A stretch of 44,973 nucleotides of DNA from Planctomycetota bacterium (GCA_038060895.1 JBBTCT010000014.1:92649-137621); one strand, 5' to 3'; numbered from the stretch's first letter, positions 30,441 through 33,674 are shown. Made by a program: numbers and translations. The notes: a model not told the origin generated them from the letters alone.

Positions 30441-32348
30441 ATGCGCCTCCTTCCCCTGGCCGTCGTGCTGCTCGCCGCTTCCCGTGCCTTCGCGCAGGAG
30501 GGGGACGAGGTGCCTCCTGAACTGGCGGCGCTGGAAGGGCGGATCGTGTCGATCACGCCCGCCGAGGCGAAGATGGGGGATACGGTCGTCGCGAAGGTCG
30601 AGCTTGTGTCGCCGAAGGGGTGGCACATTTACGGGCTGGCGAAGGGGACGAGCGGCGCGCCGACGGAATTCAAGGTGACGGAGGGGCCGTTCCGGGTCGG
30701 TGCAGGAGTCAAGGAGCCGGCGCCCAAGGTCCATGACCACACGTTTGAGAACGGGTACCGGGAAAACTACTCGTACCACGAGGGCACTGTCGTCTTCGAA
30801 GTTCCGCTGGAAGTGACCGGGGACGCGAAGCCGGGCAACACGAAGGTGACAATCTCGGTGCACACGATGTTGTGCACGATGGCCGTCTGCCTGGACGAGG
30901 CGGATACGACGTATTCGGCGACGATGAAGATTGTCGAGGGCGGCGTCGCGAAGCCGCCGACGGTGACCGATGGCGCGGCGCAGGGCGGGGGAGGATCTCC
31001 GCCGAAGGCGGCCCACGATCCCAAGAAGGGCGGATTCTGGGCGTTCATCGGGCTCTCCATCCTGACCGGGCTGGCCACTCTCGTCACTCCGTGCGTCTTT
31101 CCCATGATCCCCGTGACGATCTCCTTCTTCACCAAGCAGGCCAGCGGCGCGCGAAGCGGCACCTTCGCGCTGGCTGCGGCCTATGGGATCGGCATCGTCG
31201 TGAGCTACACGGCGATCGGCCTCATCGTCAGCGCGGCGCTTGGCGTTGAAGGCGCGAATGATTTCGCCAAGAACGCCTGGGTCAATATCACGATCTGCAT
31301 CATCTTCGTCATCTTCGCGTTCTCGCTTTTCGGGTGGTTTGAGCTCGCATTGCCCGGCTTCATCACCGACAAACTCTCCGCGCAGGGGAAAAGCGGTTAC
31401 ATCGGCGCCCTGCTCCTGGGACTCACGTTCTCGATCACGGCCTTCACCTGCGCGGCGCCCTTCCTCGGGTCGCTCCTGCTCCTCTCGGTCAATGGCGACT
31501 GGACGTGGTCGCTCTTTGGGTTCCTCACCTACTCGGGCACTATGGCCGTGCCTTTCATCGCTCTAGGCCTCTTCCCCAGCCTTCTCAAGGCGCTTCCGCG
31601 GTCCGGGGGCTGGCTGAATTCGGTCAAGGTCGTTCTGGGATTCGTCGAGCTCGCCGCGGCCTGCAAGTTCCTCGCGAACGCCGACGACCAGTGGAACTGG
31701 CACTTCGTATCGCGCTCCTACGTCCTGGCTTTCTGGACTGCCTGCTCCGTCGCAGCCGCGCTCTACCTGTTCCGCGTCTTCCGGCTCAAGGACGAAGAGC
31801 CGATACCCGAGATCGGGGTCCCGCGCATGCTCTGGGGAATCGTCTTTGCAGGATTCGCCCTCTTTTGCGCCAGCGGACTTTTCGGACGCCATCTCGGGAT
31901 CGTCGAAGCGCTCCTGCCGCTTCCTGAGCAGAAGATGTGGCTCGGCGAGGGTCCGTCGGGGGGAAGTGAAACCGGCGGCGGGCACGTGGAGTACGGCTCG
32001 TACTCGCAGGCGCTAGCGGCGGGAAAAGAGCAGAAGAAACCGGTCTTTCTCGAATTCACGGCGTTCAGCTGAACGAATTGCCGCGCGCTGGAGAACACGG
32101 TGCTGGTCAGCCCGGTGATTCTCAAGGAGCTGGAGCGGTTCGTCTGGCACAAGCTGTGGACGGATTCCAACAAGCCCCACGGGGACGAGAACAGGGCGGC
32201 AAAGGAGTCACTGGGAGGCGGAGCGCTGCCACTGCTCGTTCTTTTCGACGGCGCAGGCCGCGAAATTTCGCGGCTGCCCGATGCTGACAAGGCAGACGTC
32301 CTGATCACCGAATCACAATTGCTCGAAGCGCTTCGCAAAATCCGTTAA
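30441..32348 (+). CDS. dsbD: DsbD-like thiol:disulfide interchange protein, predicted selenoprotein (UGA 32070-32072 = Sec, UxxC in the C-terminal thioredoxin-like domain)
   Basis: Signal peptide, N-terminal domain (GWHIY, C-x4-C), TM domain TPCVFPMIP and FTCAAP, LPRSGGWLN.VK.VLGF. ORF 30402..32072 and ORF 32100..32348 are in the same frame, joined by FLEFTAFS-TGA-TNCRALE. Confidence 0.88.
32085..32103 (+). promoter_or_regulatory. putative bacterial SECIS hairpin for dsbD UGA
   Basis: GCGCUG-[GAGAACA]-CGGUGC stem-loop (two G-U pairs); the G-initiated loop begins 18 nt after the UGA; folded by eye. Confidence 0.45.
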
Positions 32349-32380: not shown

Positions 32381-32704
32381 ATGGGCAACGCAAAGGAACT
32401 GTCGGACGACGGATTTGAAGCGGAAGTAGGCGCCAAGGGCGTCGCGCTGGTGGACTTCTGGGCGACGTGGTGCGGCCCGTGCAAGAAGGTCGCACCGATC
32501 GTGGAGGAGCTGGCCGGCCAATTCACCGGCAAAGCCCGCATTTACAAGATGGACGTCGACCAGAACCAGGGAACGCCCGCGCGGTTCGGGGTGATGTCGA
32601 TCCCGACGGTCGTGCTCTTCAAGGACGGCAAGGAAGTCGATCGAGTGGTGGGCGCGCAGTCGAAGGCGTTCTTTGAAGACAAACTCAAAAAGCTGATCGG
32701 ATAA
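32381..32704 (+). CDS. trxA: thioredoxin
   Basis: LVDFWATWCGPCK, VMSIPT..LFKDG; AGGAGG at 32368-32373. Confidence 0.97.
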   Translation: MGNAKELSDDGFEAEVGAKGVALVDFWATWCGPCKKVAPIVEELAGQFTGKARIYKMDVDQNQGTPARFGVMSIPTVVLFKDGKEVDRVVGAQSKAFFEDKLKKLIG

Positions 32705-32706
32705 AA

Positions 32707-33024
32707 ATGGCGCTGACGACGATCTCGGATGCCGACTTTCAGCAGGCGGTCGCCACGGGCGTGACGGTCGTGGACTTCTGGGGAGACGGCTGACATGCCT
32801 GCACGAAAATGGCTCCCGTGCTGGAGCAGCTGGCGGCGCAGGTGGCGGGGAAAGCGAAGATCGTGAAGGCGAAAATCGACGACGCGACGGACTCCGCGTC
32901 GGGCCTCGGGGTCATGGCCCTGCCCACGTTCGTGTTCTTCAAGGACGGGAAGGAAATGGACCGGCAGATCGGGACGGCGTCGCTCGACGCGATGAAGAAG
33001 AAGGTCGACAAGATCACCGGGTAG
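32707..33024 (+). CDS. thioredoxin-fold selenoprotein (UGA 32791-32793 = Sec; U-H-A-C motif), 105 aa
   Basis: ATG 32707, 2 nt after the trxA stop, reads MALTTISDADFQQAVATGVTVVDFWGDG-TGA-HACTKMAPVLEQLA...VMALPTFVFFKDG in one frame and aligns end-to-end with the adjacent TrxA. Confidence 0.88.
32797..32843 (+). promoter_or_regulatory. putative bacterial SECIS hairpin for the Sec-thioredoxin UGA
   Basis: Upper stem GCUCC-[CGUGCU]-GGAGC (32812-32827), loop starting 23 nt after the UGA with G at loop position 2; possible lower stem GCCUGC/GCAGGU; folded by eye. Confidence 0.55.
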
Positions 33025-33025
33025 A

Positions 33026-33604
33026 CTACTTCCAGTCCACCGGCACCTTCTTCGGTTCCTTCCACGTCTCGATCATCACGAACTTCTTCTCGACGCCGTG
33101 AAGCCACACGTCGGAGGTGATTTTCACGTCGTCCTTGCAGTACTTGATCAGTGTGTCCCAGTCGCCTTTCCGGAACCACTCGATCGCCTGCAGCCCGTGG
33201 CCGCTCTTCTTCGTGCCAAGCGTCGCGCTGGCGACCGAGTCGAGCTTCACGCGGTGCCCGAGGATGCGCGTCAGGTCCTCCAGGATGTCGAACGACTTCA
33301 CCGTTGACCAGTCGAGCTTCGTGTAGCGCCCCAGCACTGCGTAGTCGAAATGCTTCTGGTTGAAGCCGATCACCCGGTCGGCGGCCCGCAGGTCCTCGAC
33401 CAGCGCGTTGACTTCCTCTTCGCGGTACACCGCGAACTCCTTCGTCTCCAGCGCGTATGTCACGCCGACCGACATCTTCAGCTCCGCCATCTTGTTGCGG
33501 CCGCCGACGTCGTCGAACGAGTTCTGCGTCTCCAGGTCGAAGACGAGCGTGCGCGCTTTCGATCTCGGCGCGCCGAAAAGCAGTCCCTGGGCGTTGTCGG
33601 GCAT
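33026..33604 (-). CDS. RNase H-like (DEDD/RNase_H_2, YprB/MrfB-like) exonuclease domain protein
   Basis: LVFDLETQ, VIGFNQKHFDY, KLDSVA..TLG..K, YCKDDV..T; start re-called at ATG 33604. Confidence 0.85.
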   Translation of the reverse strand: MPDNAQGLLFGAPRSKARTLVFDLETQNSFDDVGGRNKMAELKMSVGVTYALETKEFAVYREEEVNALVEDLRAADRVIGFNQKHFDYAVLGRYTKLDWSTVKSFDILEDLTRILGHRVKLDSVASATLGTKKSGHGLQAIEWFRKGDWDTLIKYCKDDVKITSDVWLHGVEKKFVMIETWKEPKKVPVDWK

Positions 33605-33674
33605 GAGGAGAAATCCGGAACGGGGATGCGCCGATATAACCCGTGCCGCGATTGAAGGCACGCAAAAGCCTCCT

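Follow-up and report, generated by a model that had tools for sequence, protein, structure and literature searches.

The DNA analysed here is a 44,973-nucleotide (nt) stretch from a Planctomycetota bacterium (GCA_038060895.1, JBBTCT010000014.1:92649-137621; hereafter the window), and at 32707..33024 its plus strand carries a gene for a small thioredoxin in which an in-frame UGA takes the place of the codon for the nucleophilic first Cys of the CxxC active site. From ATG 32707 to the TAG stop at 33022-33024 the 105 codons form a single frame with a sole in-frame TGA, at 32791-32793 (plus strand); decoded as selenocysteine (Sec, U) it would be residue 29, and the read-through product is MALTTISDADFQQAVATGVTVVDFWGDG-U-HACTKMAPVLEQL...ALPT...KITG, with MALTT at the N-terminus and VDFWGDG-U-HAC around the active site. 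The open reading frame (ORF) listing under translation table 11 shows just a 71-residue ORF, 32809-33024. Directly upstream, at 32381..32704 (plus strand), lies trxA, which encodes a TrxA with a WCGPC motif and is itself preceded by a dsbD gene; the TAA stop of trxA (32702-32704) is separated from ATG 32707 by 2 nt. The two thioredoxins share 45% identity across 101 residues (E 5e-30), and their alignment pairs U with the first Cys of WCGPC: VDFWGDGUHAC is matched to VDFWATWCGPC and ALPT to SIPT. The original prediction, made from the DNA alone, had proposed just this arrangement, i.e. an unannotated 105-residue Sec-thioredoxin that starts at ATG 32707 next to the trxA stop, aligns to TrxA and has a GCUCC/GGAGC hairpin behind its UGA, and we find all of these elements in place.

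The product is a predicted cytoplasmic thioredoxin without a signal peptide, in which U29 would be the attacking and C32 the resolving residue. It scores 73 bits against Pfam Thioredoxin (PF00085; cut-off 23.5, E 2.2e-20), residues 5-101 covering positions 4-102 of the 103-position profile. The AlphaFold2 model has the thioredoxin fold, with a predicted local distance difference test (pLDDT) score of 94.1 and a predicted template modelling (pTM) score of 0.86. All top Foldseek matches of this model are thioredoxins, the best one in the PDB being that of Staphylococcus aureus (2o85; template modelling score 0.94, root-mean-square deviation 0.9, 40% identity), and the sequence search of the PDB likewise returned the S. 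aureus protein (E 5e-23). In an alignment of 31 sequences U/C29, C32, P73, G81 and G89 are invariant, U29 and C32 lining up with the two Cys of CxxC. The original prediction had hinged on homologues keeping Cys or Sec in the UGA column, and 31/31 do. The loop around P73 aligns with the Ile-Pro-Thr stretch of canonical thioredoxins, and P73 is presumably the thioredoxin cis-proline. The assembly also encodes, on another contig, a homologue of the thioredoxin reductase TrxB (394 bits).

Comparative evidence argues that this is very probably a genuine selenoprotein gene. The assembly, which is 86.5% complete, contains a tRNA-Sec with the anticodon TCA (71.7 bits, above the Rfam cut-off), a SelB wing domain (76 bits) and SelA (449 bits), both above curated cut-offs, and SelD (G000:C2:48628-49548; 364 bits, above the curated cut-off), the latter with one in-frame TGA, that is, in its Sec-containing form. 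When 41 related genomes were searched with stop codons read through, 21 yielded a homologue interrupted by a single TGA. Among the 21 are 5 of the 7 further genomes in the genus and members of other families of the class, with identities down to 32-49%. Among 30 fetched loci of relatives, the codon in the first-Cys column is TGA in 19 and TGC or TGT in 11. Differences between six genomes of the genus fall on codon positions 1/2/3 in the numbers 94/51/194 before the TGA and 160/115/375 after it, and with this third-position bias the 28 codons 5' of the TGA evolve under coding constraint. Furthermore, a contig from an independent DNA assembly of another study spans 32454-32832 with zero differing letters, TGA included, so that the TGA at 32791 is not an assembly artefact.

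These observations bear directly on the possibility that the gene is a decaying trxA duplicate with a nonsense mutation, from which at most the 71-residue tail (32809-33024) is made. Consistent with decay, both gene callers and public databases give only the 71-residue fragment, and one genome within the genus no longer has the gene. Yet the TGA recurs in the same column, with no other stop, in the 21 of 41 related genomes across that range of identities; the upstream 28 codons have changed as coding sequence does; and strands 1-2 together with the entire active site of a fold modelled at pLDDT 94 would be missing from the 71-residue product. We therefore regard decay as extremely improbable. 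The database record is better described as the outcome of mis-annotation: the closest entries to the Sec-thioredoxin are all 71-residue fragments labelled 'thioredoxin', no full-length Cys orthologue above 48% identity was found among 5.8 billion clustered proteins, and the 15 full-length matches retrieved (48% identity or below) comprise 13 with WCGPC, one with YCRPC and one with a garbled motif. The error is a systematic one, and the DsbD neighbour is split in the same way.

Sec insertion in bacteria calls for a selenocysteine insertion sequence (SECIS) hairpin, and the candidate core lies at 32812..32827 (plus strand): the stem strands GCUCC (32812-32816) and GGAGC (32823-32827) enclose the loop CGUGCU (32817-32822). 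The hairpin thus has a 5-bp stem and a 6-nt loop, begins 18 nt past the UGA, which places the loop 23 nt from the UGA, and has G as the second loop base, followed by U. The bacterial SECIS model, as given in PMC13188914, specifies a loop of 3-9 nt on a stem of 4-16 bp, a G among the first two loop bases, a UGA-to-loop spacing of 16-37 nt and a minimum free energy of -7.5 or lower; loop, stem, G position and spacing of our hairpin all fall within it. The homologous hairpin is present in the same register (GCUCC-CGUGNU-GGAGC) in 16/19 Sec forms and in 0/11 Cys forms. One low-GC Sec relative has a shifted hairpin, CUCCA-GUUU-UGGAG; as for the Cys forms, five have no qualifying hairpin and one has a different hairpin of similar energy. 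Codon choice is also skewed at the hairpin. The Ala codon at this site is GCT in 15/16 cases, as against 3% of the 219 Ala codons elsewhere in the same genes, and the other hairpin codons follow suit: CCC in 17/18 (44% elsewhere), GTG in 16/17 (35%) and GAG in 18/19 (52%). The hairpin codons are, in other words, frozen at synonymous sites, and the flanking codons are free to vary.

To see how widely the hairpin core is shared, we searched 185,579 species, each represented by a single genome, with the pattern TGA-N6-TGY-N9-GCTCCCGTGNTGGAG, which by construction forces U-x-x-C. The scan returned 92 stretches (loci L041-L132), where our own arithmetic with equal base frequencies predicts about 2, and all 92 lie in open frames. 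They are distributed over Chloroflexota (47), Planctomycetota (22), Verrucomicrobiota (21), Myxococcota (1) and Vulcanimicrobiota (1). By size, 48 frames exceed 200 residues (nearly all Chloroflexota), 21 have 117-160 residues (nearly all Verrucomicrobiota) and 23 have 116 or fewer (nearly all Planctomycetota). The Chloroflexota/Anaerolineae frames are 350-450 residues long, and the one that was scanned for domains (L067) combines a DsbA-like domain with a cyclophilin-type prolyl isomerase. The Verrucomicrobiota frames, including that of the cultured Persicirhabdus sediminis, are thioredoxins of about 134 residues with a C-terminal tail (the one 134-residue frame scanned has a thioredoxin domain), and the small Planctomycetota forms align as thioredoxins. 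The occurrence of an identical SECIS core, GCUCCCGUGNUGGAG, 18 nt past the UGA in three thioredoxin-fold architectures could reflect transfer or strong convergence of a single SelB-binding solution on an A-P-V-x-E helix start.

This distribution also speaks to whether the hairpin might be something other than a SECIS, either a side effect of encoding the conserved peptide A-P-V-x-E-Q or the terminator of the convergent gene on the minus strand. The reverse complement (32827-32812), together with a short T-rich run, did score as terminator-like, the APVLE peptide is common in Cys thioredoxins too, and covariation in the stem is not significant. However, in Cys thioredoxins similar peptides are encoded by other codons, without such a hairpin, and the Ala codon that recurs here is a rare one. 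Nor can a local terminator explain the hairpin, because its 15-nt core recurs across five phyla, in three kinds of thioredoxin-fold gene and next to different neighbours. A non-SECIS origin is accordingly exceedingly unlikely. The promoter and terminator scan of the plus strand gave nothing informative; comparison of the whole window with Rfam, at gathering thresholds, gave no match and, with no bacterial SECIS family among its results, is uninformative on SECIS elements.

Several results weigh against the gene being a Sec-encoding thioredoxin gene with a SECIS. The product does not reach the cut-off of the TIGR01068 TrxA equivalog (81.8 bits when U is replaced by C, 74.3 bits when the genome was searched, versus 96.8); in a search of the whole assembly only the neighbouring TrxA passes this cut-off, with 116 bits (PF00085, E 3e-29). 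The hairpin alone folds with -6.6 kcal/mol, short of the -7.5 of the model; the centroid structure of 60 nt, which includes weakly conserved lower stems, has -20.5 kcal/mol. The folding energy of the 60 nt after the UGA is unexceptional (z 0.74; 157/200 shuffles fold at least as well). We have discarded single-sequence folding as evidence for the hairpin on account of this z value, and the significance of the hairpin rests on its conservation instead. The SECIS covariation that the original prediction had put forward as a check did not materialise, with 93.7% of cells paired, one two-sided pair change and that value reached by 114/500 shuffles, as the stem hardly varies; retention of the hairpin in the Sec forms and its lack in the Cys forms do, however, bear the SECIS assignment out. 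Finally, contigs from RNA libraries (two runs of one sample) give exact matches to stretches of dsbD (its TGA among them), to the junction of dsbD with trxA and to the 3' end of the Sec-thioredoxin gene, and none covers 32556-32991; since RNA libraries can contain DNA, we draw no conclusion on transcription.

Even with translation through the UGA, the residue inserted might be Cys, Trp or another standard amino acid, or the outcome might depend on selenium. There is precedent for this, as other systems are known to insert Cys or a near-cognate residue at Sec codons when selenium is limiting. Here, the complete SelA/SelB/SelC/SelD set in the assembly, the SECIS-type hairpin at the distance the model expects, with synonymous sites frozen in the TGA forms only, and the position of the UGA exactly in the redox Cys column, a classic Sec/Cys pair, all point to Sec, and we consider insertion of a standard residue very unlikely. 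With Sec insertion as the preferred reading, expression and catalysis would proceed as follows. On the mRNA of the dsbD(Sec)-trxA-trx(Sec) operon, translation would begin at ATG 32707, with initiation probably coupled to termination of trxA 2 nt upstream (no strong Shine-Dalgarno sequence is visible). The hairpin at 32812-32827 would recruit SelB and Sec-tRNA(Sec), so that Sec rather than termination would result at UGA 32791, as the machinery and the SECIS suggest. By established thioredoxin chemistry, the U29 selenolate would then attack substrate disulfides to form a mixed selenenylsulfide that C32 would resolve, and TrxB with NADPH would be expected to regenerate the protein.

The gene belongs to a known selenoprotein family, Sec-thioredoxin. 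Prokaryotic selenoprotein tables list a Sec-thioredoxin with UxxC (PMC13188914, PMC9312934, PMC1794560), and the family has been catalogued since the mid-2000s in several phyla; the Treponema denticola protein is described as biochemically characterised (PMC4678829, PMC13188914), and others are predicted in Geobacter, Anaeromyxobacter and Carboxydothermus. The protein encoded in the window shares with these the small single-domain architecture, a Sec that replaces the first Cys of CxxC and, a short way downstream in the coding region, a SECIS hairpin. It differs, with the T. denticola and Geobacter proteins compared by description, in its His-Ala dipeptide and in the tetrapeptide W-G-D/E-G before U; the host, an uncultured groundwater Planctomycetota genus, and the operon with a Sec-containing DsbD set it apart as well. 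The 'Trx-like 1' selenoproteins (COG0526, UxxC) from marine metagenomes have the same family definition and motif, but come from metagenomic reads without operon context, and the variants reported in the available part of that study are UxxC and CxxU (PMC2398784). Planctomycetota have 0 occurrences in the two selenoprotein reviews searched.

The original prediction had called the active site non-canonical, which overstates the case. WCGPC is indeed absent, the motif being WGDG-U-HAC, but PMC4678829 describes Sec-thioredoxins by '(W/G)UXXC', which already allows Gly before Sec, and G-U-H-A-C conforms to it. In the Sec forms that we recovered, U is preceded by WAEW, WG[DE]G, WSEG, WGPG or Y-x-D-x, and the xx dipeptide is GG, GA, PA, PS, TS, GP, PV or HA. 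Loss of the Trp and the variable dipeptide are thus traits of the Sec subfamily and not unique to this gene. Only His-Ala is specific to the genus: U-HA-C was recovered only from the window, five related genomes and five species records of the pattern scan. What goes beyond the catalogue is only this dipeptide and the operon with two selenoproteins.

The same genome holds two more thioredoxin-fold frames with one in-frame TGA each, L145 (G000:C39:13218-13520) and L141 (G000:C1:199083-199334). Their motifs at UxxC are AEW-U-GGC and ADW-U-NAC, they match Thioredoxin_7 or DsbH-like proteins, and one has an N-terminal signal-like stretch. Both are probably additional unannotated selenoproteins.

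Phylogeny, which had been proposed as a way to tell tandem duplication from separate origin, left both groupings standing. The trees were built on 101-109 alignment columns, and the tree for the clade tests was made without the eight active-site columns. From the first tree 22 rows were left out (8 duplicate partial Cys forms, 4 fragments and 12 of 18 Verrucomicrobiota, with two of the fragments among the 12); the tree for the approximately unbiased (AU) test also dispensed with the very long rows L081 and L111, and a further tree also omitted every Verrucomicrobiota row. The U-HA-C forms (6 rows, support 100/99) and the neighbouring TrxA proteins (7 rows, 100/100) each form a clade, on long branches that join in a polytomy. 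In the AU test, grouping U-HA-C with the neighbouring TrxA was not rejected (p 0.69; constrained tree 7.5 log-likelihood units above the quick free tree), and neither was grouping it with 18 other Planctomycetota Sec-thioredoxins (p 0.48; 1.35 units worse). Both clades have good support throughout the genus, so that a duplication, if there was one, must be older than the genus. Three features, none of which entered the clade-test tree, speak for a common origin with the other Sec forms: the W-G-[DE]-G-U motif that they share, identical SECIS codons and linkage to DsbD.

Ahead of trxA, at 30441..32348 on the plus strand, the dsbD gene encodes a DsbD-type membrane disulfide reductase with an in-frame TGA at 32070-32072 (motif FS-U-TNC), and as judged from its sequence this DsbD is the second selenoprotein of the operon. 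While the mechanical ORF starts at TTG 30402, ATG 30441 precedes a signal-peptide-like stretch. The predicted layout is a signal peptide, an N-terminal domain (C158/C163), DsbD_TM (C231/C350) and a C-terminal thioredoxin-like domain whose first Cys position is taken by the TGA, so that annotation would split the gene at 32072. The read-through frame matches PF02683 and PF13899; its NF001419 DsbD score of 155.6 bits is under the cut-off of 330. The six redox positions (Cys or Sec) show little or no variation across an alignment of 13 sequences. Among distinct DsbD neighbours that cover the C-terminal motif, 14/15 have TGA, and the lone Cys form adjoins a Cys thioredoxin. A 'Thiol:disulfide interchange protein' or 'Trx-like 2' family, i.e. 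DsbD with UxxC in the C-terminal domain, is listed in the literature as predicted with high confidence. The upstream DsbD belongs there by its DsbD_TM and thioredoxin-like domains and FS-U-TNC; the family covers this operon neighbour and not the Sec-thioredoxin. The main-text literature that we searched makes no mention of a Sec-DsbD and a cytoplasmic Sec-thioredoxin paired in one operon.

Further features of the neighbourhood vary. The hairpins downstream of the DsbD TGA differ between DsbD types, and in one type a C-G pair has given way to U-A in a compensatory manner (GAACC...GGUUC versus GAAUC...GAUUC). Within the genus, the DsbD upstream of trxA exists in two forms (the window, 30441-32348, versus L042 and L080) with a very similar N-terminal domain and different membrane and C-terminal modules (PCVFPMIP and FS-U-TNC versus PCVLPVL and DW-U-LTC), which suggests module exchange of DsbD within the genus. 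Some species have a second DsbD-N-terminal-like gene after the Sec-thioredoxin gene. On the other side, the minus strand carries at 33026-33661 a convergent gene for an RNase_H-superfamily/PolB-exonuclease-like protein (PF13482, E 6e-7); its stop is 1 base from that of the Sec-thioredoxin gene, leaving no space for a terminator between the two.

We then examined the possible connection between the Sec-thioredoxin and DsbD. In Escherichia coli, thioredoxin 1 reduces the membrane domain of DsbD, which passes the electrons to the C-terminal and on to the N-terminal periplasmic domain. All six corresponding redox positions are kept in the DsbD of the window; the difference is that two attacking residues, one in the thioredoxin and the other in the C-terminal domain of DsbD, are Sec here, and that the donor role is read from gene order. 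The dsbD-trxA-trx(Sec) order is found in the window and at all five distinct U-HA-C loci of other genomes, although at one of the five loci the match to DsbD is confined to its N-terminal and membrane parts. Other Planctomycetota Sec-thioredoxins (U-GA-C, U-PS-C, U-PA-C, U-TS-C and some U-GG-C) directly follow DsbD. For counting, all fetched loci were searched by tblastn and a gene was taken as linked if a DsbD homologue ends no more than 700 nt from the TGA. Linkage so defined holds for 13/29 distinct small Sec-thioredoxin loci and for 10/17 of those whose upstream sequence extends over 2 kb or more. The recurrence of the dsbD(Sec)-trxA-trx(Sec) or dsbD(Sec)-trx(Sec) order in several Planctomycetota lineages suggests that the Sec-thioredoxin may feed electrons to DsbD, and from this gene neighbourhood we tentatively propose, at somewhat short of an even chance, that the preferred substrate of the Sec-thioredoxin is the membrane domain of the co-encoded DsbD, which would feed DsbD's Sec-containing periplasmic domain. 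Both Sec-DsbD (19) and Sec-thioredoxin (21) occur in the 41 relatives, 17 of which have both, with the caveat that the genomes are not independent. The original prediction had also supposed an altered redox potential or partner specificity, and hence a specialised duplicate; such specialisation would gain indirect support from the recurring linkage to a Sec-DsbD and from the neighbouring TrxA being the sole protein of the assembly above the equivalog cut-off, and a genome of the genus that keeps dsbD(Sec)-trxA while lacking the Sec-thioredoxin gene speaks against its being indispensable.

The proposal has weaknesses. The co-occurrence is confounded because both proteins need a Sec-decoding lineage, and the two genes are adjacent in only 8/17 genomes that have both. 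Of the WAEW-U-GGC forms, just 1/8 is linked to DsbD. At one locus of the same genus (L017 1400-2400, genome G007), dsbD(Sec)-trxA is followed by the convergent exonuclease-like gene, with about 70 nt in the place of the Sec-thioredoxin gene; and the canonical TrxA of the operon could itself be the DsbD donor.

The main rival to a DsbD donor is accordingly a generalist: the protein would be a real Sec-thioredoxin without a dedicated partner that, given a supply of selenium, provides the cytoplasm with a second disulfide reductase, and its proximity to dsbD would reflect the position of the housekeeping trxA. We take this to be a serious possibility, if not one that we would expect to prevail. 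Catalogues treat the Sec-thioredoxins of several phyla as ordinary thioredoxins, DsbD is not adjacent in 16/29 distinct loci, among them 7/8 WAEW-U-GGC forms, and one same-genus genome manages without the gene. The neighbouring TrxA is, moreover, the sole canonical thioredoxin found in the assembly, so that the operon position may be inherited from TrxA. What a generalist role does not readily accommodate is that DsbD adjacency recurs in other lineages where the linked DsbDs are just 25-38% identical to that of the window, in several of them with no trxA between or beside the two genes, and that linkage goes with the active-site type: of the distinct loci with G/S-x-G before U, 11/15 are linked, versus 2/9 for WAEW forms, although these are related sequences and not independent counts.

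Extending the DsbD-donor proposal to a set of Planctomycetota lineages, Sec-thioredoxin and Sec-DsbD might together form a dedicated trans-membrane reducing pathway with selenolate attack at both soluble steps, in which loss of the Trp and the free dipeptide would be partner adaptations and not drift; we hold this stronger version to be rather unlikely as it stands. If the DsbD link is functional, selenium would be used at two consecutive steps of one electron relay.

Independently of the partner, the gene adds Planctomycetota to the hosts of Sec-thioredoxins. With the nearest database entries being 71-residue tails and DsbD being split, inventories of selenium use and redox proteins in these groundwater Planctomycetota are under-counted. 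The natural UxxC series (HA, GG, GA, PA, PS and TS) on similar scaffolds could, in turn, be used to probe what the dipeptide and the preceding Trp contribute when the nucleophile is a selenolate.

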